Source: Minisyncoccota bacterium (GTDB lineage Bacteria; Patescibacteriota; Minisyncoccia; Phycocordibacterales; JAGLPS01). From it: a stretch of DNA of 64,000 nt. The stretch spans positions 309-64,308 of the forward strand of contig JAGLPS010000019.1 of the NCBI GenBank assembly GCA_023137185.1. Direction: 5' to 3'. The notes below the pieces were generated by a model that made no database searches, was not told the DNA's origin, and was given only the letters and a program-made list of their open reading frames with translations. How positions within the stretch are numbered: position 1 is the stretch's first letter; each line of letters begins with the position of its first letter. The translations under genes and the position numbers were made by a program. Positions 3,500 to 51,441 of the stretch are shown here, piece after piece.

Positions 3500-3640
3500 T
3501 TTGTTTTCCCAAATTTTCGAGTATGTGTATACTATCATAAACATAATTACGAACGTAATTACGAACGTAATTACACCCTTGAAATTATCTGAATGCCCTA
3601 CTTGGAGGTTGAGCCTCCAAAGTTCACAAAGTTGAGATTT

Positions 3641-4430: not shown

Positions 4431-4460
4431 ATTTCATCTGCCCTTCAAAGCAAAGCTTTT

Positions 4461-4669: not shown

Positions 4670-4702
4670 TTTTATAGTCGCTTCGCTCGTTAAAAATTCG
4701 TG

Positions 4703-4773
4703 CTGCGGGACTTGGACTCGAACCAAGATACTCGCCTTCAAAGGGCGATGTCCTACCATTAGACGATCCCGCA
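4703..4773 (-). tRNA. tRNA-Gln (anticodon UUG)
   Basis: A cloverleaf folds by hand. The acceptor stem is U1-A72 and the discriminator is G73 (Gln identity elements). The D-arm is GUCU/GGAC, the anticodon stem UCGCC/GGCGA, the anticodon loop CUUUGAA and the T-arm CUUGG-UUCGAGU-CCAAG. No CCA is encoded. Confidence 0.75.
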
Positions 4774-4778
4774 ATGTG

Positions 4779-5891: not shown

Positions 5892-5930
5892 ATTATAACG
5901 AAATTCTAACAGAACAAGTAGCCACAGTAT

Positions 5931-5964
5931 ATCAAAAGAAAACCCCCTTACGCATCAAGGGGGC
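5931..5964 (-). terminator. Rho-independent terminator on the minus strand (CCCCCTT-loop-AAGGGGG followed by TTTTCTTTT)
   Basis: Hairpin plus U-tract immediately downstream of the small membrane ORF 5998..6234. Confidence 0.5.
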
Positions 5965-5997
5965 AGTGGCTATTATTTTATTCGGAGAGGTTATGGC

Positions 5998-6234
5998 CTA
6001 GAGGGGCAAAAGCGGACCCCAAATCAAAAGAAAACAAACTGCAAAGATCAAAATAGCAGCCAATATGAGGGGCTCAGAAGAACCGTCGTATTTTTCCATA
6101 TTAGGAATCCAATATTTAGAGTTCCTAATATAAAAAGTAATACCAATCACAACAATGCCAGTAATTATCACTCTAATACAATATGGTGATGAAACAAGAG
6201 CCTCCGTTAAGATTCCCATTTTTCCTCCTTCCAT
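5998..6234 (-). CDS. Small hypothetical membrane protein (two predicted TM helices)
   Basis: ORF-track ORF with hydrophobic helices and a terminator downstream. No homology recognised. Confidence 0.3.
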   Translation of the reverse strand: MEGGKMGILTEALVSSPYCIRVIITGIVVIGITFYIRNSKYWIPNMEKYDGSSEPLILAAILIFAVCFLLIWGPLLPL

Positions 6235-6308
6235 CCATATATAAATGAACTTAAAATTGACTGTATAGAATTAAATAGAAGAAAGAAGTAATTGTCAAAT
6301 TATGAATT

Positions 6309-10981: not shown

Positions 10982-13363
10982 TTAGCGCAAATCATCTTCA
11001 CGTAATACTACTTTTGAACCTGGACGAAGAGCGCCAGAAATAATTTCCTCAGCGATTACCTTTTCAATTTTTTCCTGAATCGCGCGATTAAGGGGACGAG
11101 CGCCAAACTGCGGATCACTTCCTTCTCTAACAAGAAAATCAATTAGAGCGGGAGTAATCTCCAAGTCATAGCCTTTTTCATAGAGTCGCTTTTTAAGCTT
11201 GTTGAGCATTAACTCGGCAATTTTCTTGAGATGTTCTTCTTGGAGCGGATGAAAAATAATAATTCCATCAAACCGATTTAAGAATTCGGGTTTGAAAATT
11301 CTCTTTTGGATAAGCGCGTCAATGAGTGTTTCTTTTTTCCGCGCAAGACTTTTTCCCTCCTTAACCATATTCCAGATAATATCGCTTCCAGCATTTGAAG
11401 TTGCGATAATAATGAGGTTGCGAGCATTTACTTTTTTGCCGAACATATCTGAAAACATTCCTTCATCAAGAACCTGCAAAAATAAGTCGTGCACTTCTGA
11501 ATGTGCTTTCTCAAACTCATCAAGAAGCAAAACACCATACGGATATTCGCGAACCATAGAAGCAAGAACACCTGCCGTTCCCGTTGTGAAAGAGCCAATG
11601 AGACGATCAAGAGCGTCAAGAGAGTTGTATTCTGACATATCAAGCCGCATCATTTTTGCCTCATTTCCAAAAAAGATTTCCGCGAGCGCCTTAGAGGTTT
11701 CTGTTTTCCCAACACCTGTGGGTCCCAAAAAAAGAAACGAACCAAGTGGGCGATGGGGATTCGCAATCCCAGAACGAGCCCGTTTCATTGCTATACTCAC
11801 CGCGCTCACCGCCATATCTTGTCCGACAATTCTTCTGTGAAGAACTTCTTCAAGATTCGTAAGAATCTTTTTCTCGCTTCCCTTTACCTCGCTCGTGGGG
11901 ATACCTGTTTTTGATTCAATAAGCGCGAAAACATCTTTATCTTCAATAATTTTCTTTCCACTTTTTTTAACAATAGGTACAAGTTCAACCAGCAAATCAA
12001 GCGCTTTTTCTGATAAGGAACCGCTTGTTATATAACGCTCCACGCCGTAAGCAATCGCCCGAACTGCCTGATATGTAAAAAAAACTTTATCTTTATCCTC
12101 AAAAGTTAACGCAGCGCTTTCAAGCATTTGGAGTATTCCTGAAAACCCTTTTTCTTCTATCCGCAGCTTCTCAAATCTTCGCTCAAGTCTCTCATCACGA
12201 ACAATTGTCTGTTGAAACTGAGCTGCGTCTGCAAGCGCGATGCACTGCAAAGATTGGGACGTAAGGAATGGCTCAAGCAACGCCGTGGCATCGCTTCCCA
12301 AAGAAAGAGCATTTCGTATAAACATCGTAAAGTTGGGTATCACCAAAATTATATCTCCAGCTTTTTCTGCCTGATTAAGAAGTTTGAGTAATTCTCTTTC
12401 AAATACCGCTTTTCCTCCACACACCGCAATAAAATTTTCAGTCTCAAAAACTTTTATTTGTTTATGTTCAATAGGAGAAAAAACCGTGCGTCTTTGAATT
12501 TTTGCGGCAATAGCCGATAACACTTCCATTTGAAAAGAGGGAGTATCGCTTACAAGAACCGCGTTAGCTTCCCGTGCTCGAGACAAAATTGTTTCAAGAA
12601 TTTCTACCTCCCTATCAAATCGTCCCGAGGATGAAGGTTCAATAGTTCGCGCGTATTTATCAAGGAAAAAAGTTTCTCCGTATGACCACGCCGAACCGAT
12701 ACTTTTGACACGAGCAAGATTCTCTCTGCTCCACCAACGTTTTTTTCTTCTTGCCCATTCTCGCATATTCTCAACAAATATTACTGCGCCAACCCATTCT
12801 TCCCGCTGAATATTTTTTGAAAAAAGAAAATTGGAGAGTTCAGCATCTGATTCAAAAAGCGCTTCGGCATACAAAGAGAGGGAAATGTGTGTTTTAAAAG
12901 ACAAATTATTGCCCATAACCTTACTGGATCTCTCGTTAAGAAAAAACCGCATCTCTTTTTGAGATAGCCCAAGGCGAGTCGCTATTTCTTTTCCGAAAGA
13001 AGAAACAAAAAAACCTTTAGTGATATCCGATGAATTTGTTTCGAAAATTACCGAGGCAACATCAAAACTTACTGTTTTTTTCTGAGAATGGAGAATGTCT
13101 ATATCAGAGAAACGAAAGGCATATGAACGGAAAAAGACTTCAAGCATAAAAAAAGAAAGATACACAGACAAAAAAAGGAAAATGCCCCTTGTCGTGACTG
13201 AAAGAGAAACGCTGGGGACAAAAACAAAAACGAAAATAAAAAATAATACGAAAACGAGAGAAACGCGAAGAATAAGAGCGCGAATAGACGAAGGAAGTAT
13301 TTTTTCAATAAAAGCCGCGGGGGAAAAAGGACGGGAGAGCTGTGTGATTTCTTTCCAATTCAT
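10982..13363 (-). CDS. Membrane-anchored Clp/Hsp100-family AAA+ ATPase. It has N-terminal TM helices, a Clp_N-like region, a degenerate D1 module lacking Walker A, and an intact D2 ATPase module.
   Basis: D2 shows [45 protein letters not shown] ... VLLLDEFEKAH ... ATSNAGS. The D1-equivalent region has no GxxGxGKT. The N-terminus is strongly hydrophobic (LVFVLFFIFVFVFVPSV...). Confidence 0.7.
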   Translation of the reverse strand: MNWKEITQLSRPFSPAAFIEKILPSSIRALILRVSLVFVLFFIFVFVFVPSVSLSVTTRGIFLFLSVYLSFFMLEVFFRSYAFRFSDIDILHSQKKTVSFDVASVIFETNSSDITKGFFVSSFGKEIATRLGLSQKEMRFFLNERSSKVMGNNLSFKTHISLSLYAEALFESDAELSNFLFSKNIQREEWVGAVIFVENMREWARRKKRWWSRENLARVKSIGSAWSYGETFFLDKYARTIEPSSSGRFDREVEILETILSRAREANAVLVSDTPSFQMEVLSAIAAKIQRRTVFSPIEHKQIKVFETENFIAVCGGKAVFERELLKLLNQAEKAGDIILVIPNFTMFIRNALSLGSDATALLEPFLTSQSLQCIALADAAQFQQTIVRDERLERRFEKLRIEEKGFSGILQMLESAALTFEDKDKVFFTYQAVRAIAYGVERYITSGSLSEKALDLLVELVPIVKKSGKKIIEDKDVFALIESKTGIPTSEVKGSEKKILTNLEEVLHRRIVGQDMAVSAVSIAMKRARSGIANPHRPLGSFLFLGPTGVGKTETSKALAEIFFGNEAKMMRLDMSEYNSLDALDRLIGSFTTGTAGVLASMVREYPYGVLLLDEFEKAHSEVHDLFLQVLDEGMFSDMFGKKVNARNLIIIATSNAGSDIIWNMVKEGKSLARKKETLIDALIQKRIFKPEFLNRFDGIIIFHPLQEEHLKKIAELMLNKLKKRLYEKGYDLEITPALIDFLVREGSDPQFGARPLNRAIQEKIEKVIAEEIISGALRPGSKVVLREDDLR

Positions 13364-17479: not shown

Positions 17480-19708
17480 TTGGTATCAATGACTAAGTTG
17501 TTAATTGTAGAATCACCGGCAAAAGCCAAAACCATCACAAAGTATCTTGATGATACATATACCGTTACCGCGTCAGTCGGGCACATAAGAGACTTGCCAA
17601 AAAGCAATAAGAAAGCCGTGGATATAGAACACGGTTTTGTTCCACATTACGAAATTTCCAAAGGAAAAGAGAAAGTTATTTCGGAAATAAAAAGTCTCGC
17701 AAAAAAAGCAGAGGAGGTGCTTCTCGCGACCGACCCCGACCGCGAAGGAGAAGCGATCGCGTGGCATATAATTCAAGCCTGCGATTTAGAAAATCAAAAG
17801 TTAAAAGTCAAAAGGATTGTTTTTCACGAAATTACCAAAGACGCCGTCAACGAAGCATTAAAGCATCCCCGAGATATTGATAACGACTTGAAGGAAGCTC
17901 AGGAGGCCCGCCGTGTTCTTGACCGCCTCGTCGGCTACGACTTGTCGGGACTTATCTGGAAAAAAGTTAGATATGGACTTTCCGCGGGACGAGTGCAATC
18001 CCCCGCTTTGCGAATCCTCTCCGAACGCGAGCGCGAAATCGCGGCTTTTATTCCCCAGAAATATTGGGTTATTGACGCGGACACAGAAACTGATAAAAAA
18101 GAAAAAATTACTTTTACCTGCGCGAAAGAACCCACTGAAGAAAAAGAAGCGGAAGAGATTTTGAAACGAGGAAAAGAGGCGCAATGGAAAATTGTTGATG
18201 TTAAAGAAACAAAAGGGAAACGTGCACCGAAAGCTCCTTTTATCACTTCAACTCTCCAACAAGCCGCAAGTTCCCGTCTTGGATTTTCGCCATCACGCGC
18301 GATGATGCTTGCCCAGAAACTTTATGAAGCGGGATTCATTACATATATGCGCACCGATAGCACTACCATAAGTGGTTCTATTGCCACTCATATCGCGGAA
18401 GTTATCAAAAAAGAGTTCGGAGAAAAATTATACACGCCGCGTGTATATAAAACAAAATCAAAAAACGCGCAAGAAGCGCACGAAGCAATACGTCCAACTG
18501 ATGTACTGAAGAGGTTTGCTGGACACAATGACGCGGAGAAAGCGCTCTACCAGCTTATCTGGGAAAGAACTGTCGCCTCTCAAATGGCAGACGCTATTGT
18601 TTTGAAAACCCGCGTCATCGCGGAAGGAGGAAAGGAAAATCCTGAGTTTACGGCAAATGGTTCGCGAATTATTTCACCCGGCTGGCTCCTTGCTGACCCG
18701 CGCGCGCGAGGCGAAGACGTAGAACTGCCGAAAGTGCAAGCTCAAGACAATCTCTCTCTGCTTAAAATACGCTCTGAAGAAAAAGAAACGCTTCCCCCGC
18801 CTCGCTATTCAGAGGCCGGCCTCGTAAAAGAGCTTGAAAAGCGCGGTATTGGTCGCCCTTCCACTTACGCGGCTATCATAAAAACCATTCAGGAAAGAGG
18901 CTACGTTGAGAAAATAAACCGCAGTCTCAAAGTAACAGACACAGGCGAAGTAGTAAGCTCTTTTCTAGAAAATAATTTCGCAAAATACGTAAGCGATACA
19001 TTTACCGCCGAGATGGAAAACAAGCTTGACGCAATCGCCGATGGACAAGCCACATATACAAAAATACTTGAAGACTTTTATGCCCCATTCGCCAAGGATG
19101 TGGAATCAAAACAGGACACGGAAAAAATCACGACACTGGGAGACGCTGAACCTCATCACAAATGTCCTTTGTGCGGAGGAGATATGATTATAAAACTCGG
19201 ACGAACCGGAAAGTTTTTAAGTTGTAAAAAATTCCCAGAATGCAAAGGCGCGCGAACACTGGAAGGAGAAGCAATGGAAGGACCAAAAGAAACTGGAGAA
19301 AACTGTCCCGAATGCGCAAAAAGCCTGCCTGTTGAGAAACAAGGAAAACTTGTAGAGCGTATGGGACGATTCGGAAAATTTATCGCTTGTAGCCGTTATC
19401 CCAAATGTAAGTACGTCAGGAAAGACCCCGCTCAAGAAGAAAAGGCAAAAACAGGAGTTAAGTGCCCCGAATGCGCAAAAAGCCTGCCTGCCGATAAGCA
19501 AGGTGAAATTATGGAGCGTCGCGGACGATTTGGACCTTTTTTCAGTTGCAGCAACTACCCTGATTGCCGTTTTAATATAAAATCAAAACCGACAGGAAAA
19601 TTGTGCGAGGATTGCGGTTCTCTAATGATGGAAGGCACGAAGACTATCCCTGAACGTTGTAGCAACAAAAACTGTCCAAATCACAATCCTCATAAAAAAA
19701 TAAAGTAA
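17480..19708 (+). CDS. topA: DNA topoisomerase I with C-terminal zinc-ribbon repeats
   Basis: TOPRIM TDPDREGEAIAWHI, and multiple CPxC...C Zn ribbons (CPLCGGDM, CPECAKS x2, CEDCGS). The start may be Met-4 (MTKLL). Confidence 0.9.
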   Translation: MVSMTKLLIVESPAKAKTITKYLDDTYTVTASVGHIRDLPKSNKKAVDIEHGFVPHYEISKGKEKVISEIKSLAKKAEEVLLATDPDREGEAIAWHIIQACDLENQKLKVKRIVFHEITKDAVNEALKHPRDIDNDLKEAQEARRVLDRLVGYDLSGLIWKKVRYGLSAGRVQSPALRILSEREREIAAFIPQKYWVIDADTETDKKEKITFTCAKEPTEEKEAEEILKRGKEAQWKIVDVKETKGKRAPKAPFITSTLQQAASSRLGFSPSRAMMLAQKLYEAGFITYMRTDSTTISGSIATHIAEVIKKEFGEKLYTPRVYKTKSKNAQEAHEAIRPTDVLKRFAGHNDAEKALYQLIWERTVASQMADAIVLKTRVIAEGGKENPEFTANGSRIISPGWLLADPRARGEDVELPKVQAQDNLSLLKIRSEEKETLPPPRYSEAGLVKELEKRGIGRPSTYAAIIKTIQERGYVEKINRSLKVTDTGEVVSSFLENNFAKYVSDTFTAEMENKLDAIADGQATYTKILEDFYAPFAKDVESKQDTEKITTLGDAEPHHKCPLCGGDMIIKLGRTGKFLSCKKFPECKGARTLEGEAMEGPKETGENCPECAKSLPVEKQGKLVERMGRFGKFIACSRYPKCKYVRKDPAQEEKAKTGVKCPECAKSLPADKQGEIMERRGRFGPFFSCSNYPDCRFNIKSKPTGKLCEDCGSLMMEGTKTIPERCSNKNCPNHNPHKKIK

Positions 19709-19986
19709 TATTAAAGCACGCAAACTGCTTTGCGTGCGCAACTAGTCTGAGTGAGCCGGAGCGATGTTTCTGTAGCAACAGAAACCGCGAGGCGGGTGAG
19801 AAATGCTGGGAGCATTTCGCAAGACCTTTTGAGACAATTTCTGAATTGTCCAAAAGGTGTACAGACTCTGTAAGAGTCACAAGTCATTCAAGCTCCGTCG
19901 AGCTTGAATGACTTGTGACCGAAGACTATCCCTGAACGTTGTAGCAACAAAAACTGCCCAAATCACAATCCTCATAAAAAAAACTA
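19709..19986 (+). mobile_element. 211-bp non-coding structured element inserted immediately after the topA stop. It is followed by a near-identical duplicate of the last ~66 bp of topA, carrying its own in-frame stop (PHKKN*).
   Basis: topA 19642..19708 is repeated at 19920..19986 with 2 mismatches plus an altered terminal codon. The element begins with the hairpin GCACGCAAACTGCTTTGCGTGC. It ends with CCAAAAGGTGTACAGACTCTGTAAGAGTC plus a 20-bp-stem hairpin. The same 3' motif ends the tRNA-linked elements. Confidence 0.5.
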
Positions 19987-23318: not shown

Positions 23319-23638
23319 CAAATTGAGCAAAGCGAAAGCTGTGCCGAGGGAGGCGCAGCTTTCTTTCTGAAGAAAGCGTCGCGCGGACTTGAAGCCCGAT
23401 TGAGATTTTCTTGAATCCAAAGGATGAAAAGAAAATCCAATTGGGGTACTGTTCCTGTAAGGAACAGTACCCCAACACAAGTAGTCAAGGCGAAGTTGGG
23501 CGCGGCAAAATCGTGTGGGGAAAGGCTTGAGGGTTGAGGCGCGAATACTTGGAGCGCCGAAAAATCTTGTGAGATTTTTTCTGAAAAATCCACAAGGTGT
23601 ACAGAACCTGTAAGATTCAAGTCCCTCCCTCGGCACCA
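23319..23638 (+). mobile_element. tRNA-3'-end-linked element. It comprises module B (about 130 bp), the hairpin GGGGTACTGTTCC-TGTAA-GGAACAGTACCCC, a partial tRNA-Leu copy (anticodon-3' half to T-stem), the GGTGTACAGAACCTGTAAG motif, and a duplicate of the tRNA 3' end with CCA (ATTCAAGTCCCTCCCTCGGCACCA).
   Basis: It starts exactly after the discriminator A. Module B is shared with 30473..30630 and 40615..40777. Confidence 0.5.
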
Positions 23639-24247: not shown

Positions 24248-24340
24248 GCGAGTATAGTTTAGTGGTAAAATGGCTGCCCCGAACAACTTTGCTCCGCAAA
24301 GCATACGGGGTAAACTTCCCAAGCCCCTACACCAACTTTT
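24248..24340 (+). pseudogene. Degenerate tRNA-like sequence (5' acceptor/D-arm-like GCGAGUAUAGUUUAGUGGUAAAAU and an anticodon-arm-like CUUCCCAAG copy of tRNA-Gly) without a T-arm
   Basis: It resembles the 5' half and the anticodon region of the adjacent tRNA-Gly(CCC) but cannot fold into a cloverleaf. Confidence 0.3.
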
Positions 24341-24351
24341 ACATAACATAC

Positions 24352-24422
24352 GCGGGTATGGTTCAGTGGTAGAACACTTGCTTCCCAAGCAAGAAACGCG
24401 AGTTCGATTCTCGCTACCCGCA
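24352..24422 (+). tRNA. tRNA-Gly (anticodon CCC)
   Basis: GCGGGUA-UG-GUUCAGUGGUAGAAC, anticodon arm CUUGC-UUCCCAA-GCAAG, T-arm GCGAG-UUCGAUU-CUCGC, acceptor UACCCGC-A. Confidence 0.85.
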
Positions 24423-24472
24423 CAAAAAGGCCGCATTATTATTTAGAAATAATGCGGCCGAAAACTTGATAC

Positions 24473-29986: not shown

Positions 29987-30197
29987 TACAGCCTCCTTTC
30001 GTTGGGAGCTAAGCGCTCCTAGGTTTACGTAAATTCACGTTTCAATTTTTTCTAAAGAAATTATACTACAAAAATAGTTTTAAGTCAACAAAATAAACCT
30101 CGGAACTGGAAACCTCCTTTACTTTTTTCTTTTTTGCATTTACATTATATGAGTATCTCTCTTCGCGAAGGCGAAGAGAGATAGAAAAAAAATATAT

Positions 30198-30280
30198 GCG
30201 CAGGTGGCGGAGTGGTCAATCGCGCCTGACTGTAAATCAGGTGGCTTATGCCTACGGGGGTTCAAATCCCTCCCTGCGCA
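30198..30280 (+). tRNA. tRNA-Tyr (anticodon GUA), long variable arm
   Basis: GCGCAGG-UG-GCGGAGUGGUCAAUCGC, anticodon arm CCUGA-CUGUAAA-UCAGG, variable arm GUGGCUUAUGCCUAC, T-arm GGGGG-UUCAAAU-CCCUC, acceptor CCUGCGC-A. Confidence 0.8.
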
Positions 30281-30818
30281 CAAAATCAAATTTCAGCAGG
30301 TTCTCCTGCTGAAATTTGTATTTCTAGTAGCACACGCAGTGTGCGATGGGATTTGAAAGATTTTGCGGGGCTACCCATTCAGCAGAATGGGTCGCAAAAT
30401 CAGGGCTGAGAAATTTTTTACTGCGGCGGCAGTAAAAAATGTTCTTGGCCAAATCCCTCCCTGCGCACAGATTGAGCAAAGCGAGAGCTGTGGCTGGGAG
30501 GCGCAGCTTTTTTTCTGAAGAAAGCGTTGCGCGGATTTGAAAACCTTTTGAGGTTTTTTGGAGTCAAAGACGAACAAAAAATCCAAAAGGTGTACAGAAA
30601 CTGTAAGTTTCAAATCCCTCCCTGCGCACAAAATCAAATTTCAGCAGGTTCTCCTGCTGAAATTTGTATTTCTAGTAGCACACGCAGTGTGCGATGGGAT
30701 TTGAAAGATTTTGCGGGGTTACCCATTCAGCAGAATGGGTCGCAAAATCAGGGCTGAGAAATTTTTTACTGCGGCAGCAGTAAAAAATGTTCTCGGCCAA
30801 GTCCCTCAGCGCGCACAA
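30281..30818 (+). mobile_element. Three tandem tRNA-3'-end-linked elements. Module A (30281..30472), module B (30473..30630) and module A' (30631..30818) each end in a duplicate of the tRNA-Tyr 3' end (AAATCCCTCCCTGCGCA; degenerate in the third).
   Basis: Module A and A' are about 97% identical over about 190 bp and are built from four near-perfect hairpins. Module B matches the elements at the Leu-CAA and Leu-UAG loci and ends CCAAAAGGTGTACAGAAACTGTAAGTTTC. Confidence 0.55.
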
Positions 30819-31011
30819 AAATTATACAAAAATATTTCTTCAAAATTTCGCCTGACATCGCGGTTATCTGAAGTTGCCGAAGGCAATTTTGGGATTTTTC
30901 GCAGGAAAATCTCAGATAATCGCTGTTAGGCGTCCCGAGCGGAATGAAATGGAGCGAGTGCCTGCAAGGCGTGGTCGGAGTAAAATCTTTGATTTTACGG
31001 AGAAGTTGAAT

Positions 31012-31434
31012 TTATGGGCTCTGAATATTTTCTTTTATGAAGAGTTTTATTTTCGATTTTATTTGAGAAATTATCTTTTTGTAACCTTTGTCATCTATTC
31101 CTTTAGGATCTTTAATGTCCCAAAATTCTGCTTTGTTGCTTTTAAATAAATATTCAGGAATTGTTTCAAATTCAGCCATGACTATTATTTTATCGAACTC
31201 TATAACCATTTCTGGAGTTAATTGAGTTCTGGCATTTTCTGCTATACCAATTCCTTCTTCTTCCATAAATCTAATAACCGGTTCTGCCAAGGGAATTTCT
31301 TTGAGTTTTTGTCCTTCTTTTTCAAAAATCTTAGTTCCTACAGAAAATGCTTTTATTCCTGAATATTTATTGAACAAAGCAGCAGCCATTTGGCTTCTTC
31401 CAACATTTCCTCTACAAACAAAAAGTATTTTCAT
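31012..31434 (-). CDS. Low-molecular-weight phosphotyrosine phosphatase / ArsC-superfamily protein
   Basis: N-terminal P-loop MKILFVCRGNVGRSQMA (CX5R). Confidence 0.65.
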   Translation of the reverse strand: MKILFVCRGNVGRSQMAAALFNKYSGIKAFSVGTKIFEKEGQKLKEIPLAEPVIRFMEEEGIGIAENARTQLTPEMVIEFDKIIVMAEFETIPEYLFKSNKAEFWDIKDPKGIDDKGYKKIISQIKSKIKLFIKENIQSP

Positions 31435-39200: not shown

Positions 39201-39511
39201 GTTTCAAATTTGAAAAAGGAACACAGGTTTTGAGAGACGTCGCGGCAGAATTTGTTTCCCGCGAGTCAAACAGAACATCCCTCATTACTGTCACCTCTGT
39301 CTCCCTATCAACTGATTTCTCAAAAGTTATATTTTTGATAAGCGTATACCCAGAAGAAGCGGAAAAAGAAGCGCTTGACTTCTTAAAAAGAAAAAGGGGA
39401 GAATTGAGGACATACCTCGGAGCGAAAGTAAAAACAAAAAGAATACCCTTTGTCGATTTTGAAATAGACAAAGGCGAGAAAACGCGTCAGCGACTTGACG
39501 AGATTCTCTAG
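39197..39511 (+). CDS. rbfA: Ribosome-binding factor A
   Basis: Position downstream of infB with a 4-bp overlap. KH-like RbfA fold pattern (RTSLITVTSVSLSTDFS.VIFLIS). Confidence 0.8.
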   Translation: MSFKFEKGTQVLRDVAAEFVSRESNRTSLITVTSVSLSTDFSKVIFLISVYPEEAEKEALDFLKRKRGELRTYLGAKVKTKRIPFVDFEIDKGEKTRQRLDEIL

Positions 39512-39555
39512 AACAGTATTTACATAATAAAAAAGAAATCTTAAAGAAAAAATAT

Positions 39556-39630
39556 GGCCTGGTAGACAAGTGGTAAGTCGAGAGTCTGCAAAACTCTTAT
39601 GCGCGGGTTCGATTCCCGCCCAGGCCTCCA
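39556..39630 (+). tRNA. tRNA-Cys (anticodon GCA), CCA encoded
   Basis: GGCCUGG-UA-GACAAGUGGUAAGUC-GAGAG-UCUGCAAAA-CUCUU-AUGC-GCGGG-UUCGAUU-CCCGC-CCAGGCC-U-CCA. Confidence 0.8.
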
Positions 39631-39895
39631 GAAAACTGGTTGCAGTTTTCGTAGAGGACTAGGGAGTACGTAAACTGCTTTACGTGCGTCGGGAATCGAA
39701 AGGTGGAGGCACGTTTTTCTAGCAAGAAAAACAGCCGAGCCAAGGTCATGGAAATGTGTCTGCGACGGCAGACAAATTATCCCTGACCGATTCCCGCCCA
39801 GGCCTCCAGAAAACCGACTGTGGTTTTCGCAGAGGATTGGGAGCATGTAAACTGCTTTATATTCATAGGCTTTGTACCTTTTGTTTTTAAGGCAA
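39631..39895 (+). mobile_element. tRNA-3'-end-linked element. It starts with the hairpin GAAAACTGGTTGCAGTTTTC and a CGTAAACTGCTTTACG hairpin, and ends with a duplicate of the tRNA-Cys 3' end with CCA (39789..39808). A second truncated copy follows (39809..39895).
   Basis: GATTCCCGCCCAGGCCTCCA is repeated. The CUGC-loop hairpin is shared with the topA-linked element. Confidence 0.45.
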
Positions 39896-39898
39896 TCT

Positions 39899-39981
39899 GC
39901 CCGGGTGGCGGAATGGTATACGCGAAGGACTTAAAATCCTTTGTTCGAAAGGACGTGTGGGTTCGACTCCCACCCCGGGCA
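39899..39981 (+). tRNA. tRNA-Leu (anticodon UAA), class II
   Basis: GCCCGGG-UG-GCGGAAUGGUAUACGC, anticodon arm AAGGA-CUUAAAA-UCCUU, long variable arm, T-arm GUGGG-UUCGACU-CCCAC, acceptor CCCGGGC-A. Confidence 0.8.
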
Positions 39982-40201
39982 CAATGGCACATTATGATAT
40001 GAAGAAAAAAGAAACATACGAATCTGTACAGTAAAAAGTGTCACTAATAGAAAAATCTGGTAAAGTAGTAAAATATTCCCCGCCCATAGCCATGCCCCGT
40101 ACCTCCCGCAGCGGGATGGTATCGGGGTCAATTGGTAGATTCGCCAGCTGGCGGACTTTTAAAGAAAATGAAGCAGTTTGATTGTTTGAAAATTTAATCA
40201 T

Positions 40202-40274
40202 CCGCCCATAGCTCAGTTGGTAGAGCAGTTGCCTCTTAAGCAAATGGTCGCAGGTTCGAATCCTGCTGGGCGGA
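40202..40274 (+). tRNA. tRNA-Lys (anticodon CUU); unusual C1-G72 start
   Basis: CCGCCCA-UA-GCUCAGUUGGUAGAGC-A-GUUGC-CUCUUAA-GCAAA-UGGUC-GCAGG-UUCGAAU-CCUGC-UGGGCGG-A. It matches canonical bacterial tRNA-Lys apart from the 5' end. Confidence 0.7.
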
Positions 40275-40532
40275 CTCGCGAAGCGAGTCCGAGACGGAGG
40301 CTGACGAGCCGAGTCGGGCTCGCGCAAAAATTCAGCAGAATTTTATGTGTGAGGACACAAAGACTTTGCGAAGCGATAGGACGTCCAGAGAAAGCAAACT
40401 GCTTTGCTTTCGTCAGGATTCGAAGTTGCCTAACAAGCTAAAAACTAATAAACTACAAGCTGTGGTTATGGGCAGACGGGAAAATTCAAGTAGTACAGCA
40501 AAGCTGACCACAGGATAAATCCCGTACAAAGT

Positions 40533-40614
40533 GCTGGGGTGGCGAAATTGGTAGACGCGCTAGTCTTAGGAACTAGTGGAGCAATCCATGGGAGTTCAAG
40601 TCTCCCCCCCAGCA
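40533..40614 (+). tRNA. tRNA-Leu (anticodon UAG), class II
   Basis: GCUGGGG-UG-GCGAAAUUGGUAGACGC, anticodon arm CUAGU-CUUAGGA-ACUAG, long variable arm, T-arm GGGAG-UUCAAGU-CUCCC, acceptor CCCCAGC-A. Confidence 0.8.
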
Positions 40615-40777
40615 CAAATTGAGCAAAGCGAAAGCTGTGCCGAGGGAGGCGCAGCTTTCTTTCTGAAGAAAGCGTTGCGCGGACTTGAAGCCCGATTGAG
40701 ATTTTCTTGAATCCGAAGGATGAAAAGAAAATCCAATTGGGATACTGAAACTGTAAGTTTCAAGTCTCCCCCCAGCA
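40615..40777 (+). mobile_element. tRNA-3'-end-linked module B, ending in GATACTGAAACTGTAAGTTTC plus a duplicate of the tRNA-Leu(UAG) 3' end (AAGTCTCCCCCCAGCA)
   Basis: About 95% identical to module B at 23319.. and 30473... The whole tRNA-plus-element unit is bracketed by a 19-bp inverted repeat (40521..40539 and 40772..40790). Confidence 0.5.
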
Positions 40778-40888
40778 CTTTGTACGGGATTTGAAATAAC
40801 TTGACTTTTTTAAATATTTGTGACACTGTTACAAATAGAAGATAACGCTTTTTGAAATCGGTTTTTACATCCTAAAGGAGGGTGCAAA

Positions 40889-42112
40889 ATGAAAGAAAAA
40901 AAGAAGGAGCTTTTGGAGATAGCCTTAAACAAGGCTTTGGAAAAGAGAGAAAAAGATAAAGAACGGAGAAAACTAAAATTCATACAGTGGATTGTTGCGT
41001 TGTATAGCATCGCTCTGCTATTTTCTTCCCTTTTTCTTCTTGTATCTCTCAAAATTGGAGGAATTCTGTTTATTGTAAATGTAATCTACTCACTTGCTTC
41101 ATTCAAAACCGTTTCCTCAAATGAGTTGGGGGTAGTACGTCTTTTTGGAGAAGCCGTGGCAGAATTAGAGTCAGGACTTTGTTTTGTGCCACTTGGTATT
41201 TGTGAACTCAAAACATATCCTAAAAGCACTCAAGTAATAGAAATAGGTTCCCCTCTTGAAGATGATGAGGGAAAGCCTATCCCCAAAGAAAAAATTCAAC
41301 GGACTGGTGTTGTGATCAACGACACTCCTTTTAGAATCCCTTTAAAAGGAGATCCAGAGAGTAAAAACGTTATGGACCATGCTTTGACAGTTGATTCTCG
41401 AGCGCAAGTTCAGTACGTCGTCGAAAGCACTATTGCTTTTGACGAACAAAAGAGAGACCCCAATCTTGCTAACAACGAATTAATTGAAGTTCTCAAAACA
41501 GCCGTTCAAAAATTATATGGTGACAAAACACCAAAAATGGTACTCGAGCTCATCAGCAGTGGAAGAATCAACGATGTGCTCCAGGAAGAATTGGAATGGC
41601 TTATCGGTGAACCGACATCACAACCTCCTTCGGTTCTTTCAGGAAAAGAGCCTGAGGAAAATAAGGAGGAGACCAAAGAAAAAGAATGGGAATGGGTTGA
41701 AAACAAAAGGCCATGGTGGGGAATCGACATACTGAGTGTGGGTATCACAACATTGGGCCTTCCGAGAAGGGTGAACGAAGGCCTAGCTGATGCAAGAAAA
41801 AGAGAAATACTTGCAGAGGCAGACGAAGTGCAAAGAGTTAAGGCTGGTACGGGTGACGCATTTGCACTCAGTGCACGTCTTGACGCGGAAGCAACCGGCC
41901 TAAAGAAAAAGGCTAAAGTCGGGAAAACTGTTGAAGGAAAGAGAGTTATTGAACTGGAAACAGTTCAACAAACTTTTAAGAACACGGAGAAAATCATTGT
42001 CACCCCTTCTGAAGGGTTGATGTCCACAGTAATGGGATTATCCCAAGCTGTAAAAGAAACATCCTCTTCTTCCAAAAAGAGCGCCATTGAAAAAGAAACC
42101 GTAAAAAAGTGA
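40889..42112 (+). CDS. SPFH/band-7 domain membrane protein (stomatin/HflKC/flotillin superfamily) with a coiled-coil C-terminus
   Basis: N-terminal TM segment, then SNELGVVRLFGEAVAELESGLCFVPLGICELKTYPKSTQVIE...TVDSRAQVQYVV, the SPFH pattern. Confidence 0.65.
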   Translation: MKEKKKELLEIALNKALEKREKDKERRKLKFIQWIVALYSIALLFSSLFLLVSLKIGGILFIVNVIYSLASFKTVSSNELGVVRLFGEAVAELESGLCFVPLGICELKTYPKSTQVIEIGSPLEDDEGKPIPKEKIQRTGVVINDTPFRIPLKGDPESKNVMDHALTVDSRAQVQYVVESTIAFDEQKRDPNLANNELIEVLKTAVQKLYGDKTPKMVLELISSGRINDVLQEELEWLIGEPTSQPPSVLSGKEPEENKEETKEKEWEWVENKRPWWGIDILSVGITTLGLPRRVNEGLADARKREILAEADEVQRVKAGTGDAFALSARLDAEATGLKKKAKVGKTVEGKRVIELETVQQTFKNTEKIIVTPSEGLMSTVMGLSQAVKETSSSSKKSAIEKETVKK

Positions 42113-43253: not shown

Positions 43254-43529
43254 TTACGGAAAACTTGGACTATAAATTCCAAAAGTGCCAATGAGTACCT
43301 GTACTATTCCATAGACACTCCCCATTATAAACATTCCAATAAGCCCCCACATAATTGCTCGTTTTCCTTGAAGACGATCGTTATCGGTCAAACCCCCCTC
43401 ACCCTTTCCACTTATCACATACTGCACTACCCCCCAAACAAAAACAATCATTGCGACTGCGAACAAAAGTCGGATAAAAGGGTCAATAATGACTTCAGAA
43501 ACGCTGTTAAGAAAGGGACCAATTGACAT
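43254..43529 (-). CDS. Small two-helix membrane protein, VirB2/TrbC (T4SS pilin)-like paralog 1
   Basis: Helix-loop-helix hydrophobic topology with a central GKGEGG loop; similar to the five upstream paralogs. Confidence 0.4.
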   Translation of the reverse strand: MSIGPFLNSVSEVIIDPFIRLLFAVAMIVFVWGVVQYVISGKGEGGLTDNDRLQGKRAIMWGLIGMFIMGSVYGIVQVLIGTFGIYSPSFP

Positions 43530-43537
43530 ATCGAGCT

Positions 43538-43879
43538 TTATTGAACTGAAGGAACAGTAACTGAAGTTGTTTCCTGAATACCAAGTGCTTGGTTAATAAA
43601 GGCTACAATACCCCAGATTGACGCCATCACAAAGAGCGCGATTACTCCCCAAAGCATCATTGTCTTTCCTTTTGTTTGTGCTTCTTCATTTCCTCCAGCA
43701 AGAAGATACATTGCCAATCCCCAAAAGAAGAAAAGAAGCGCGGCAGCAAACGCGATAGGAATAAGAAGATCAACTATTGACCCAATTGCCTGAACAAGTG
43801 TTTGCACATTGCTTAAATTCTGAGCAAACGCGATTACAGGCGCCCCCAAAATTGCAAAAAGTGCTATATTTTTTTTCAT
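43538..43879 (-). CDS. VirB2/TrbC-like pilin paralog 2 (signal peptide MKKNIALFAILGAPVIAFA)
   Basis: Core AAALLFFFWGLAMYLLAGGNEEAQTKGKTMMLWGVIALFVMASIWGIV. Confidence 0.5.
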   Translation of the reverse strand: MKKNIALFAILGAPVIAFAQNLSNVQTLVQAIGSIVDLLIPIAFAAALLFFFWGLAMYLLAGGNEEAQTKGKTMMLWGVIALFVMASIWGIVAFINQALGIQETTSVTVPSVQ

Positions 43880-44055
43880 TTTTTTGTATAAAGCTAATAA
43901 AAATAATACGAAAACGACCTCATTTTCTAACAAATCATTCTTTATAATACCTTAATTTCAAGCGAAGAACAAGGAGACTGTGGATAAATACCAAGGAGGA
44001 TAAAGCAATTTTAAGGTATTTGTTATTCAAAAAAAAGACCGACCTGATTCACCGT

Positions 44056-44370
44056 CTAAAAAATGTCTTCTTGGAAGAATGTGATAATCCCCCAAATCGA
44101 GACCATAACAAAAAGAGCGGTAATCCCCCATTGCATAAGCCGTTTACCATCGGCGCGCGCTTTCTCGTTATCAGCATTAAGAATAAACTTTGCCAATCCC
44201 CAAAAGAAGAAAAGAAGAGCGGCGGCAGCGGCAATACGAGTAAGGTCATTAAAAAAATCTACAAGGTACCACAAAATCTCTTGGATATTCTCAAAGGCTT
44301 CTGTAATGAATGGGAAAGAAACTAAAATGGAAATAAATATAAGAAAAATGGAGAATGAATATATTTTCAT
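44056..44370 (-). CDS. VirB2/TrbC-like pilin paralog 3
   Basis: Core AAAALLFFFWGLAKFILNADNEKARADGKRLMQWGITALFVMVSIWGII. Confidence 0.5.
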   Translation of the reverse strand: MKIYSFSIFLIFISILVSFPFITEAFENIQEILWYLVDFFNDLTRIAAAAALLFFFWGLAKFILNADNEKARADGKRLMQWGITALFVMVSIWGIITFFQEDIF

Positions 44371-44380
44371 AAGACCTTAA

Positions 44381-44710
44381 TTAAAAACGTGGAGCAAGCG
44401 GCACACCAAATTGAAAGTCAAAACTTCCCGCAATGATACTTGCAAGCGCCCAGGCCGAAAGAATTACGAACAGACCTATAATTCCCCACAGCATAAGTTT
44501 TTTTCCTTCTTCAACCGATTCTTCACTTCCCCCACGAGAGAGAAATTTAGCCAAACCCCATACAAAAAGAAAAAGAGCGTACGCCACCGCTGCCGGAAGC
44601 GCCAGATTTATAATTCCTATAACAATCCCTACAAAACCGCTAAAATCCTGCGGCTGAGCAAACGCCATTAGAGGAAAAAGAAATGAAATTAAAAGCAAAA
44701 AATATCGCAT
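44381..44710 (-). CDS. VirB2/TrbC-like pilin paralog 4 (signal peptide MRYFLLLISFLFPLMAFA)
   Basis: Core AYALFLFVWGLAKFLSRGGSEESVEEGKKLMLWGIIGLFVILSAWAL. Confidence 0.5.
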   Translation of the reverse strand: MRYFLLLISFLFPLMAFAQPQDFSGFVGIVIGIINLALPAAVAYALFLFVWGLAKFLSRGGSEESVEEGKKLMLWGIIGLFVILSAWALASIIAGSFDFQFGVPLAPRF

Positions 44711-44713
44711 AAA

Positions 44714-45055
44714 TTAACCTGTGATTTGGCTGATAGTATTTTCAATAACCTGCGCTATTACCCACGCGCCAAGCAGGATAATCGCTCCGATAGCGCTCCA
44801 CAAAAACGCCCGTTTTGCCACCTCCAGTTTTTCTGGGTTTCCTTGCGCCGTGACAAAAAGAAAACCAGAATAAATAATTGCCAAGACTACAATCACAGCG
44901 CCTATTGGAATAACTATATCCGTGACAATAACCTCAACAAATTTGCCAAGCGTATCAATACCTCCCTTGAGAGGATTTTCAATTCCCTGGGCAGAAACTG
45001 CTAAAGGCAGAGTGCCTGCAATAAGTGAAACAAGTGATATATATGCTTTTTTCAT
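44714..45055 (-). CDS. VirB2/TrbC-like pilin paralog 5 (signal peptide ...LAVSAQG)
   Basis: Core VLAIIYSGFLFVTAQGNPEKLEVAKRAFLWSAIGAIILLGAWVIAQV. Confidence 0.45.
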   Translation of the reverse strand: MKKAYISLVSLIAGTLPLAVSAQGIENPLKGGIDTLGKFVEVIVTDIVIPIGAVIVVLAIIYSGFLFVTAQGNPEKLEVAKRAFLWSAIGAIILLGAWVIAQVIENTISQITG

Positions 45056-45064
45056 AATAGGTAA

Positions 45065-45433
45065 TTAGAGATATGAATAGCTTTCTTTGACAAGAGCGCC
45101 GAGAATAGTGTGAACGATAAGCCACGCGCTTAAAATAATAATAAATCCCCATAACACTTTCCAAAATACTAAATGCGCCTTTTTTATCTGATTCTCACTG
45201 CCTCCTGCCGTGAGATACAAAAATCCAGCGTACACAAACGCGATAACAGCAAGAGGAATTGAGATAACAACAAGAAAATTAACGATACTGTCCCCAAGTT
45301 CCAAAAGAGACCCGAAGTTGCAATCAAGACCGTCACACGGAACAATCCCCTCTTGAGAAAATACGAGTAATGGAAAAACAAAAAAGAGAATACTCGCAAG
45401 AAAAAAAGACTTTTTAAAAATAAGTGATTTCAT
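45065..45433 (-). CDS. VirB2/TrbC-like pilin paralog 6 (signal peptide; CDGLDC motif)
   Basis: Core AVIAFVYAGFLYLTAGGSENQIKKAHLVFWKVLWGFIIILSAWLIV. Confidence 0.45.
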   Translation of the reverse strand: MKSLIFKKSFFLASILFFVFPLLVFSQEGIVPCDGLDCNFGSLLELGDSIVNFLVVISIPLAVIAFVYAGFLYLTAGGSENQIKKAHLVFWKVLWGFIIILSAWLIVHTILGALVKESYSYL

Positions 45434-50918: not shown

Positions 50919-51002
50919 TTTTTTTCGTGAAAATTGAAAGTCAACTTGGAAGCTCGGCTTCCAAAAAAGAGCTCCGAAATGTTGTATGGGGCAGCCTTTA
51001 GC

Positions 51003-51066
51003 TATTAGCTCTTAGGCGGAAGAATTTTTCCTAATAGCTATCTTCCTAAAGGCTAAAAGCTATACC
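51003..51066. repeat. Intergenic motif copy 1 of TAGCTNTTAGGCRGAAGAATTTTTCYWAAAGCTA (also at 53262..53300 and 58358..58392), embedded in AGCTATTAG/CTAATAGCT inverted repeats
   Basis: Three copies, each upstream of a plus-strand gene (rpsA-like, lepB, trxB). Confidence 0.6.
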
Positions 51067-51441
51067 AGGGGGTTTACCCCCACACCTGTTTCCCCGTTGT
51101 CACAGTATTTTCAGGAATAATGTGATTGTAAAAAGTGTGGCTATACTTTCCAATGTTATGAATACATCGACTTAGGCGACAAAATACTACGAGAAAACAG
51201 GTGTGGGGGTATACAAAAGTCTTTTTCTCCGTATAATAGGGAAATCTGTCTTTATTATGTACTGTCTTAAAGAGACAGGGTAGTTAAGATATGTTCTTTA
51301 TTGGAAGCGACCATTTATCCTCACAGCTCTGCTGCGGGAATCGACGGACGGCAAACTTTATTATTAATCGGAAAAGAGTAGCCTCATATTTGAGAACAGA
51401 GAGAATCGGCACTATGAACCTCTTTTCTATACAACATTATA

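Follow-up and report, generated by a model that had tools for sequence, protein, structure and literature searches.

Structured modules carrying sense and antisense copies of the upstream gene's 3' end, behind tRNA genes and topA of a Patescibacteria genome

The stretch of DNA analysed here (the window, 64 kb) contains a tRNA-Tyr(GTA) gene followed by three modules, A, B and A', each closed by a repeat of the tRNA's terminal part, T-loop to 3' end (Table 1). Exact matches were mapped against the tRNA end at 30261-30282 (T-loop to discriminator plus CA) as reference, and CAAATCCCTCCCTGCGCACA was found to occur exactly three times, at 30263-30282 in the tRNA itself, at 30450-30469 and at 30611-30630, the last occurrence extending to 22 nt and reading TTCAAATCC... 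The original prediction, made from the letters of this locus, had every module restoring the tRNA 3' end, which is true of two modules with exact copies (20-22 nt) but not of the third, whose copy matches at 16 of 20 positions. This degenerate copy keeps its pairing with the antisense segment of A and A' through U-G wobble. Chance can be excluded as the origin of the copies, since exact repeats of 19-21 nt are not expected within 600 nt and 0 of 20 tRNAs of module-free relatives show a comparable 3'-end copy.

Modules A and A' had been described as about 97% identical, and the blocks copy+A+copy (30261-30469) and copy+A'+copy (30609-30817) do share 97% identity over 209 nt, with three mismatches in the copy and body and four in the terminal 20-nt copy. 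The three differences between the bodies comprise one in an internal loop, one in a loop and one change from G-U to G-C. All the hairpins named in the prediction are present, one with a loop that had been slightly misquoted and is in fact GGCG/GGCA. A terminator-like hairpin begins 5 nt past tRNA-Tyr, at the very start of module A, and because it is strong the rest of module A may be poorly co-transcribed. The leftover non-coding trailer behind the array may be the original trailer of the tRNA-Tyr gene. By eye, GAAGTTGCC in this trailer recurs in the tRNA-Lys trailer (40414-40430).

Table 1. Positions of the modules, their parts and associated features in the window.
Feature	Position	Strand	Remarks
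tRNA-Tyr(GTA)	30198-30281 (ARAGORN); 30198-30280 (Rfam, 63.8 bits)	+	no encoded CCA
Module A body	30283-30449	+	
A, terminator-like leader hairpin	30287-30318	+	
A, small hairpin	30330-30344	+	GCACAC/GTGTGC
A, antisense segment	30339-30357	+	GTGTGCG-AT-GGGATTTGAA
A, hairpin X	30361-30399	+	loop AGCA
A, hairpin Y	30404-30450	+	loop GGCG
Sense copy 1 of tRNA-Tyr 3' end	30450-30469	+	20/20
Module B body	30470-30608	+	
B, GNRA mini-hairpin	30480-30489	+	
B, antisense part 1	30489-30501	+	TGTGGCTGGGAGG
B, hairpin h	30502-30533	+	
B, antisense part 2	30533-30542	+	GGATTTGAAA
B, hairpin P3	30544-30590	+	
B, hairpin P4	30597-30611	+	loop C-UGUAA-G
Sense copy 2 of tRNA-Tyr 3' end	30609-30630	+	22/22
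Module A' body	30631-30797	+	parts as in A
Degenerate sense copy 3	30798-30817	+	CAAGTCCCTCAGCGCGCACA, 16/20
Leftover non-coding trailer	30818-31011	+	long hairpin ~30849-30932 (z -2.5, weak)
topA module	19638-19982	+	63-nt ORF 3' end (19638-19700), module, second 63-nt copy
topA module interior	19701-19919	+	hairpin h, X, hp1, P3, P4, 20-bp hairpin
tRNA-Leu(CAA) family member	23320-23636	+	B 5' part and P3-P4
tRNA-Cys module	39631-39865	+	antisense 39654-39700; sense copy 39788-39808 (21/21)
tRNA-Lys trailer	40276-40430	+	X-like hairpin 40327-40344; antisense a1-h-a2 ~40380-40424
Module B after tRNA-Leu(TAG)	40616-40792	+	sense copy 40759-40778

The most distinctive feature of the modules is an internal antisense copy, which the original prediction overlooked together with the mosaics of covarying hairpins and the wider family that includes topA. 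Every module contains an exact reverse-complement match to the local tRNA end, situated 20-75 nt from the start of the unit and in many cases interrupted by a small hairpin. For 9 of 11 modules, among them module A with tRNA-Tyr, the cognate end gave the best duplex of the 12 tRNA ends compared. The poorly matched antisenses are those of module B at tRNA-Tyr and at tRNA-Leu(TAG), and the pairing is therefore not strictly maintained; the antisense of the window's tRNA-Leu(TAG) module is of the Leu(CAA) type.

Modules of the same family lie behind at least five of nine tRNA genes, namely tRNA-Tyr, Leu(CAA), Leu(TAG), Cys and Lys, and behind the protein gene topA, and all copies are directly downstream of the gene and on its strand. 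Module B (covariance-model match of 90.8 bits at tRNA-Tyr) was predicted to be common to two other tRNA loci, and it recurs at 40620-40772 after tRNA-Leu(TAG), with 82% identity, and at 23324-23461 (80%) and 23584-23636 (89%) after tRNA-Leu(CAA). The latter locus carries a perfect antisense, TGTGCCGAGGGAGG..GGACTTGAA, at 23340-23393, and a degenerate tRNA-Leu copy (23484-23535) with an 80-nt hairpin insert in its T-loop (23536-23615), after which comes a sense copy matching at 21/21 positions (23616-23636). Blocks consisting of tRNA-Leu plus module B are 88% identical over 226 nt between the CAA and TAG loci, and by this comparison, together with the Leu(CAA)-type antisense at tRNA-Leu(TAG), the exchange between loci looks like gene conversion. 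A partial second unit follows the sense copy at tRNA-Cys, and a sense copy is absent from the window's tRNA-Lys trailer (40276-40430). At topA the second copy of the ORF end (19920-19982) is identical at 62 of 63 positions, the sole mismatch being T/C, and the module gives a covariance-model match of 63.8 bits at 19823-19886.

The predicted folds of the modules have z-scores of -5 to -17 against shuffled sequences, and in minimum-free-energy folds the pairing of antisense with copy closes each unit. When the whole tRNA-Tyr array is folded, the cloverleaf stays intact and the three antisenses pair with the three downstream copies; with fewer of these copies, the predicted fold has the tRNA's 3' strand taken up by the antisense. 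Compensatory changes affect 14 of 23 pairs of P3-P4 (seven copies) and 11 of 14 pairs of hairpin X (seven modules), one hairpin differs between two strains by three compensatory pairs, and the conserved hairpins of the family (X, Y, hp1, P3 and P4) have invariant loops. The fold is better on the gene's strand for 12 of 13 modules, the exception being topA, where the opposite strand is better. This strong covariation (P3-P4, hairpin X) backs structured non-coding RNA, which the original prediction had offered as an alternative to integration. It is very unlikely that the modules are functionless debris, that is, decaying tandem duplications or recombination scars at tRNA genes in a rearrangement-prone genome. 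The many partial tRNA copies in the window (a tRNA-Gly 5' half at 24248-24340, a Lys-like piece at 40080-40156, and 23484-23535) and the loss of units between strains would suit such decay, but it would leave unexplained the compensatory substitutions and invariant loops across species, the strand bias, the perfect cognate antisense beside a decayed sense copy in loci L005 and L006 of relatives, and the presence of some 2 kb of modules in a streamlined genome.

As the original prediction anticipated, further copies exist elsewhere in the genome and in relatives, and relatives also have empty sites. Repeat and antisense in related MAGs always fit the local tRNA, the antisense reading TGTGCTGGGGAGG at tRNA-Leu(TAG) in L005, TGTGCCCCCG..GCAGG at tRNA-Arg in L006 and TGTGCCGGAG..AGGGACTCGAA at tRNA-Leu(CAA) in L007; three of the five loci from a metagenome scan (L008-L010) were chance matches in coding DNA and were set aside. 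Orthologous sites are occupied in distant relatives, at tRNA-Leu(TAG) in L005, at tRNA-Leu(CAA) beside ParB in L007 and at topA in L018, and module copies within the genome of the window show about 80% identity to one another, with compensatory changes among their differences. Occupied orthologous sites in distant relatives, combined with compensatory divergence, argue for an inherited functional RNA and not for recent transposition. Syntenic relatives L020 and L021 are module-free at tRNA-Leu(CAA) and tRNA-Tyr. Synteny was also sought through two neighbours of tRNA-Tyr: homologues of the 356-aa protein were at most 54% identical and not syntenic, and relatives of the LMW phosphatase lay in archaeal contexts, with no orthologous tRNA-Tyr locus.

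Conspecific strains differ by a single unit at tRNA-Cys, where strain contig L026 is without exactly one unit and the boundary falls at the 21-nt repeat; at tRNA-Lys, contigs L026 and L027 have an extra unit with a sense copy, and unit polymorphism is probable there. Two independent assemblies break exactly at 30282, the point where the copies diverge, and the modules explain assembly breaks at tRNA genes in these genomes. The arrays themselves are extremely unlikely to be an artefact of metagenomic assembly, in which strain variants had been mis-joined at 20-nt repeats. The contigs of one sample do end at the repeat, one scaffold has a gap within the array, and repeat collapse could account for the tRNA-Lys difference; against this, the order A-B-A' is the same in the window, in the NCBI MAG contig DAOWAV010000006 and, across the gap, in a scaffold of another sample, SNPs separate A from A', and the same architecture is seen at independent loci and in unrelated metagenomes.

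The first proposal for this locus was integration at a tRNA end, and the units are indeed bounded by duplicated ends that start in the T-loop, but none of the window's proteins is an integrase, and the units share no fixed att. Islands and CIMEs accreted at tRNA/tmRNA 3' ends by tyrosine integrases, such as ICESt-type elements and the Dehalococcoides ssrA islands (PMC3146451), resemble the modules in their tandem units, in gene-restoring direct repeats that begin in the T-loop (here 20-22 nt at tRNA-Tyr, 21 nt at tRNA-Leu(CAA) and tRNA-Cys, and 63 nt at topA) and in the occurrence of occupied and empty sites, for which deletion between repeats is an equally good explanation here. Unlike those elements, the modules are 160-260 bp long and gene-free, contain an internal antisense copy and RNA-type covariation, and have among their hosts a protein gene, with its 63-nt repeat. 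Their repeat also varies with the host gene, so that module B, instead of one att for the family, has Tyr-, Leu-CAA-, Leu-TAG- or Arg-specific repeats; a fixed attP cannot produce such a change of repeat from one host gene to the next within a single module family. The 38 proteins of the 64-kb window include no integrase (neither tyrosine nor serine recombinase), transposase or reverse transcriptase, the neighbours of the modules being housekeeping genes, and a partial scan beside the modules of L005-L007 revealed none of the three. Four module patterns searched against viral contigs gave one chance match inside a coding region and nothing else.

A version of the integration idea that does not need a local enzyme would make the modules miniature, non-autonomous integrative or mobile DNA cassettes, in which a new gene 3' end with its module enters the T-loop or the topA end through a recombinase encoded elsewhere and units accrete serially. 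This is possible, if on the unlikely side. The direct repeats run from the T-loop to the gene end, as in the T-loop class of tRNA integration, and the left repeat of topA completes the ORF in an att-like manner. At tRNA-Leu(TAG), positions 40770-40792, after the copy, are a 23/23 reverse complement of the tRNA 5' leader and first bases (40517-40539), and at two loci such a partner of the leader lies after the last copy. The outermost copy is also the most diverged, the terminal copy after A' being far more diverged than the module body, and together with the position of the leader partner this suggests that blocks of copy plus module were inserted into a pre-existing gene end. Empty sites, unit indels between strains and the two assemblies that stop at the same base fit as well. 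Weighing against cassettes, repeats within one family are peculiar to the host gene, with lengths of 19-63 nt, inter-repeat deletion accounts for the strain differences, copies within the genome are not near-identical as after a recent burst, orthologous sites are conserved, and neither the recombination genes sought in the window and beside the L005-L007 modules nor virus- or plasmid-like carriers were found.

In one variant, single-stranded DNA folds so that antisense and sense copy form a hairpin imitating the duplex of the target, in the manner of CTX-phi attP and integron attC, and an alternative makes the antisense an "insulator" that sequesters the duplicated end within the transcript. 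Like CTX-phi attP(+)/XerCD and attC, the modules have inverted target copies about 80-100 nt apart that form a bulged, imperfect hairpin, and their sequence of copy, loop, inverted copy, rest and copy is what integration of a folded hairpin site of the CTX-phi kind should leave; attC cassettes, too, form tandem arrays at one site and may be non-coding. The modules differ in having arms of 20 nt of host-gene sequence and no dif or GTTRRRY core or Xer/IntI context, and an integron cassette was rejected on the lack of this core and of an integrase (the junctions read ..GGC/CAAATCC and ..AAGT/TTCAAATCC); GNRA and other conserved loops, with conservation of orthologous sites, point to RNA. A broader proposal, which we find doubtful, is that of an undescribed class of miniature cassettes anchored at gene 3' ends, without a recombinase of their own, able to sit behind any conserved gene, tRNA or protein-coding, and with an antisense guide or insulator rewritten for each host gene. 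Such cassettes might spread, for example, by transformation followed by homologous recombination through the gene ends they duplicate, or as single strands folded to resemble their target, and would then be mobile non-coding elements guided by a hairpin or by homology.

Several other kinds of element were considered. A group I intron was rejected, tRNA-Tyr being intact and no model matching; the tRNA introns of Patescibacteria interrupt the anticodon loop at position 35/36 (PMC13011429). A primer-binding site was rejected because the antisense matches the gene sequence (..A-CA) and not a CCA end. For a diversity-generating retroelement at the topA repeat there is no reverse transcriptase and only one, non-adenine, mismatch in 63 nt, and for a retron or other RT-dependent ncRNA there is no adjacent reverse transcriptase among the housekeeping neighbours. 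A MITE would have terminal inverted repeats, which the unit ends do not have, and a target-site duplication of 2-10 bp, where the duplications seen here are 19-63 nt and always end at the gene end. Box C/D-like guides were considered by eye from CUGA in some loops and rejected, as its distance to the antisense is not fixed.

Searches with Rfam 15, including its models for group I/II introns, tmRNA, ribozymes and GOLLD/ROOL, returned only tRNAs at the gathering score, and permissive searches gave nothing credible at E<=10 over 30150-31000 or at E<=1 over 4400-4800 and 39500-40900. Literature searches found no description of such elements. As judged from Rfam 15, viral contigs and these literature searches, the modules correspond to none of the RNA families or mobile elements described so far. 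Structured non-coding RNAs do occur directly downstream of tRNA genes, as in E. coli 3'ETS-leuZ and GOLLD/ROOL, and the modules are like these in being structured, non-coding, 3' of a tRNA and probably co-transcribed. They share no sequence or structure match with them in Rfam, and we know of none with antisense and sense copies of a tRNA 3' end or in arrays of units.

The reading we favour, at a probability of roughly 0.45, is that the modules are a lineage-specific family of structured trailer RNAs, passed on vertically and probably co-transcribed, whose plan is a triad of target, antisense and decoy and whose arrays change by recombination between decoys. The target is the 3' part of the upstream gene, usually a CCA-less tRNA (from T-loop to discriminator plus CA), with the unit immediately 3' on the same strand and ordered as antisense of the target, between two and four of the conserved hairpins (X, Y, hp1, P3, P4) and sense decoy. 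By pairing with the decoy, the antisense would form a compact multi-hairpin domain and leave the real tRNA free to fold; were decoys missing, it would be predicted to seize the tRNA's 3' strand. Co-transcribed units may in this way act as insulators of the upstream RNA's 3' end or control how it folds, is processed or is kept stable, which would amount to an attenuator-like choice between 1:2 and 2:3 pairing. Homologous recombination and gene conversion between copies, and not a dedicated integrase, would let arrays grow, shrink and swap parts. As in attenuators and T-boxes, there are three segments, the central one of which is able to pair with the first or with the third; unlike in an attenuator, segment 1 is a functional tRNA 3' strand or an ORF end and no regulated gene lies downstream, and the complementarity of 14-23 nt differs from the T-box, which contacts NCCA only. 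Besides the terminator-like hairpin of module A, the poorly matched antisenses of module B, the opposite-strand fold at topA and the signs of block insertion into gene ends, two further points speak against the trailer-RNA reading: the closing helix has no obvious need for tRNA sequence, and perfect direct repeats of 20-63 nt resemble the products of DNA-level events.

Some units could instead be read as small RNAs on a tRNA scaffold, which as an account of the family is quite unlikely. Tandem tRNA duplicates would have retained their acceptor and T stems, which would give stability and serve RNase P, RNase Z and the CCA-adding enzyme as a processing scaffold. Only one hairpin would be left of the D and anticodon arms, cargo hairpins would sit in the T-loop, and a stable tRNA-like RNA would be set free from each unit. 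The antisense of L006 and of module B in L007 is split accordingly into 7 nt (acceptor 5' strand) and 5 nt (T-stem 5' strand) around a hairpin, giving an acceptor-like and a T-stem-like helix, and at the window's tRNA-Leu(CAA) a degenerate but full tRNA copy can still be recognised, with the 80-nt insert in its T-loop. Two tandem tRNA-Gly copies decay reciprocally between the window and L018/L019, which would also fit. Such units recall tmRNA, YrlA, viral TLS, mascRNA and engineered tRNA scaffolds in their 7-bp and 5-bp helices enclosing a cargo. The arrangement is not family-wide, however, for module A is without the 7+5 split and the topA module without any such scaffold. The helix, moreover, usually spans the T-loop, which is thus paired, and passes the discriminator by 3 bp (as in A and the window's B), which is not tRNA-like, and non-tRNA parts common to different tRNAs cannot stem from independent duplications.

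Patescibacteria have genomes of about 1 Mb, and yet this lineage devotes kilobases to the modules. If they are RNAs, they would form a new modular ncRNA family with an unusual logic, in which an antisense to the host RNA's 3' end is neutralised by a decoy, and they would matter for the maturation or control of CCA-less tRNAs in organisms whose RNA-processing machinery is minimal. As DNA parasites they would instead be the smallest gene-end-restoring insertions known and would show how to spread without a dedicated recombinase. The covarying module alignment can seed a family-wide search. Separately, DNA mini-hairpins of the type GCGAAGC/GCGAAAGC show a modest enrichment, on both strands.

The array 3' of tRNA-Tyr(GTA) is built around a 20-mer, CAAATCCCTCCCTGCGCACA, which spans the T-loop, the 3' strands of the T-stem and acceptor stem, and the discriminator plus CA. 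The original prediction of three modules, each bounded by the tRNA end, held for the two exact downstream copies, but the last copy is degenerate (see table). A and A' were found, as proposed, to be near-duplicates (97% identity over 209 nt when each is compared with its flanking copies), B recurs 3' of tRNA-Leu(TAG) and tRNA-Leu(CAA), and the hairpins are real, with stability far above that of shuffled sequences (z of -8.4 for A, -5.3 for B and -17 for the whole array). The A-B-A' order is identical in the window and in an NCBI MAG (contig DAOWAV010000006), a scaffold from another sample covers A-B-A' with a gap, and the tRNA-Tyr locus is also on ENA and Logan contigs of one sample series. 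Two other assemblies stop precisely at base 30282, beyond which the copies differ, and this may point to structural heterogeneity; that the array is an assembly artefact seems to us very improbable. The window, part of a Patescibacteria MAG, has a G+C content of 41%, and CCA is encoded in none of its nine tRNA genes (0/9); one of its proteins carries the name 'Candidatus Pacebacteria bacterium KAR00_02885', and ParB homologues are labelled Paceibacterota.

Coordinates and composition of the module loci
Feature	Position	Remarks
tRNA-Tyr(GTA)	30198-30281	
CAAATCCCTCCCTGCGCACA, exact copies	30263-30282; 30450-30469; 30611-30630	first copy in tRNA
CAAATCCCTCCCTGCGCACA, degenerate version	30798-30817	16/20
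Module A body	30283-30449	
Module B body	30470-30608	
Module A' body	30631-30797	
topA module of the same family	19638-19982, including both repeats	219-nt module directly behind ORF
B leader + locally matched antisense		Leu(TAG) in L005; Arg(CCT) in L006; Leu(CAA) in L007

The original prediction missed that every module carries, in addition, the repeated tRNA end in antisense (reverse-complement) form. In A this antisense reads GTGTGCG-AT-GGGATTTGAA; in B at tRNA-Tyr it is split (TGTGGCTGGGAGG - hairpin - GGATTTGAAA), and in the B unit 3' of tRNA-Leu(CAA) it matches the tRNA of that locus perfectly (TGTGCCGAGGGAGG - hairpin - GGACTTGAA). Equivalent segments occur in the tRNA-Cys module and the tRNA-Lys trailer. 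Further module copies, which had been sought, were present at other window loci and in L005, L006 and L007, where the B leader, ATTGAGCAAAGCGAAAGC, recurs and the antisense after it is altered to suit the tRNA at each locus; these loci come from other metagenomes, and the L007 tRNA-Leu(CAA) has two modules in tandem, as at tRNA-Tyr. In a duplex-energy matrix comparing 12 tRNA ends, 9 of 11 modules paired best with their cognate end, the exceptions being B at Tyr (weak) and the window B at Leu(TAG), which bears a Leu(CAA) antisense.

The hairpins are conserved and covary. Across seven copies, 14 of the 23 pairs in P3 and P4, two hairpins of B, are compensatory; the P4 stem occurs in six different complementary forms around an unchanging loop, C-UGUAA-G. 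Hairpin X (loop AGCA; 11/14 pairs compensatory) is common to A, the Cys module, both L007 modules, the extra Lys module and the topA modules. One hairpin reads GGCT-gacg-AGCC in one strain and GCGC-gacg-GCGC in another, and the bodies of A and A' have three differences, in loops or from G-U to G-C. For 12 of 13 modules the gene's strand gave a better fold than its complement. Compared by eye, the modules appear to have arisen by deletion from a single archetype, whose order would be leader, antisense-1, hairpin h, antisense-2, X, hairpin hp1, P3, P4 or hairpin Y, and sense copy.

For one module alone, the predicted thermodynamic optimum joins the tRNA's own 3' strand to the antisense, and the tRNA's 5' strand pairs with the distal copy. 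The predicted fold of the full array retains the tRNA cloverleaf and places every antisense on one downstream copy, so that each unit would be self-neutralising. At tRNA-Leu(TAG) and L007 tRNA-Leu(CAA) the complement of the tRNA 5' leader follows the last copy, and in module-free tRNAs it lies immediately 3' of the tRNA; the distal copy thus appears to be the gene's original end. A perfect 23-nt inverted repeat (40517-40539 / 40770-40792) brackets tRNA-Leu(TAG) and its module, one arm comprising the 5' leader and first tRNA bases, the other the sense-copy end and 14 nt of trailer. In module-free Patescibacteria tRNAs, namely L015 tRNA-Ile (12074-12146) and L019 tRNA-Gly, leader and trailer are complementary over 11-20 nt, which lengthens the acceptor stem in the manner of an rRNA processing stem.

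The module family is not restricted to tRNA genes. A P3-P4 covariance model recovered an untrained copy at 19823-19886 (63.8 bits), in a module behind topA that lies between two copies (62/63) of the ORF's last 63 nt. The left copy completes the protein (..HNPHKKIK*), the right would give ..HNPHKKN*, and the left edge of the duplicated segment coincides with the antisense target. The orthologous topA module of L018 (74% ParB identity) lacks P3-P4 and the second copy, yet it retains a stretch complementary to the L018 topA sequence ~70 nt ahead of the stop codon; the theme common to the family is therefore antisense against the 3' portion of the preceding gene.

Modules were absent at tRNA-Leu(CAA), Tyr, Gln and Trp in the syntenic relatives L020 and L021 (67-70% ParB identity), whose module-free tRNA-Tyr and tRNA-Leu(CAA) are empty sites, and in the more distant Patescibacteria loci L015-L017 (0/20 tRNAs together with L020/L021). 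In L019 a degenerate tRNA-Leu copy lies directly 3' of tRNA-Leu(CAA); in the window a 150-nt B segment intervenes. At tRNA-Gly two tandem gene versions show reciprocal decay: upstream of the intact gene (24352-24423) the window retains a degraded 5' portion (24248-24340) of a second tRNA-Gly(CCC) version, whereas in L018 (2846-3062) and L019 the second version is intact and the window's version is only a 3' remnant, with an 86-nt hairpin block in its T-loop in L018 but not L019. Among strains, the tRNA-Cys locus of L026 is short by exactly one unit, the junction falling within the 21-nt repeat, and L026 and L027 have an extra unit at tRNA-Lys, a difference that could in part reflect collapse during assembly; four assemblies showed no variation at the Leu(CAA) and Gly loci. 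When the window, L026 and L027 are compared at tRNA-Leu(TAG), a C-to-T change in the T-stem/acceptor C-run (40595-40609) goes together with an A-to-G change in the module antisense, and the C-run of the decoy copy (40759-40778) varies from 6 to 8.

Our leading interpretation, held tentatively (probability about 0.45), is that the modules form a family of structured trailer RNAs, inherited vertically and probably co-transcribed, based on a triad of target, antisense and decoy. The units would likely insulate or switch the way the 3' end of the upstream RNA folds and is processed, and arrays may change through recombination between decoy copies. The original prediction proposed accretion at the tRNA end of miniature mobile elements or of structured RNA genes, with which the repeats, empty sites and unit indels are compatible; the perfect repeats, the leader-trailer geometry and the strong terminator-like hairpin that begins A also fit mobile DNA, including a variant with a folded-hairpin att site. 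Integrase-driven mini-elements are argued against, and trailer RNAs favored, because no recombinase was found among 38 proteins of the 64-kb window, the repeats are host-specific (19-63 nt inside one family), modules are kept at orthologous sites with compensatory change, and exchange between loci resembles gene conversion. Mobile DNA is somewhat unlikely, and a tRNA-scaffold reading of the units is improbable, neutral debris slightly more so; these last two, like assembly artefact, rank below both trailer RNAs and mobile DNA. Neither Rfam families nor viral sequences matched the modules, and the searched literature held no description of them. The ingredients (tRNA-end repeats, structured trailers, alternative pairings) are each known; their combination was not seen in that literature. 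That the modules are a new class of recombinase-independent cassette, homology-guided or hairpin-guided, we consider unlikely.

A different kind of structured tRNA trailer follows tRNA-Gln (4702-4773): a tandem repeat (4460-4663, minus strand; 99 nt x 2.1, 92% matches) that has a shorter period of ~50 nt inside it and consists of hairpins with CUGAUGA...CGAAG, resembling a hammerhead core or C box; it had no Rfam match even at E<=1. A mini tRNA-Lys-like piece (40080-40156), 45 nt upstream of tRNA-Lys, combines an acceptor 5' strand (CCGCCCATAGC), a hairpin insert, a D-loop-like TCAATTGGTAGA and a 3' end-like GCCAGCTGGCGGAC. Adjoining the tRNA-Tyr array is an LMW phosphatase / ArsC-like gene (31012-31434, minus strand) whose closest relatives (~80% identity) share their contigs with archaeal genes (Spt5-NGN, D-Tyr-tRNA deacylase), suggesting transfer between domains. 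At 43254-45433 (minus strand) there is a run of five to six small paralogues of the T4SS_pilin family, their number and length varying between strain contigs (L026-L028). Palindromic terminator-like hairpins (TTTTGGACAC..GTGTCCAAAA) form a small family in four intergenic regions (8895, 23704, 36978, 60771), and several gaps between genes, at 400-520 nt longer than is usual in a streamlined genome, occur at 855-1362, 2092-2507, 3225-3640, 5892-6308 and 50919-51441.
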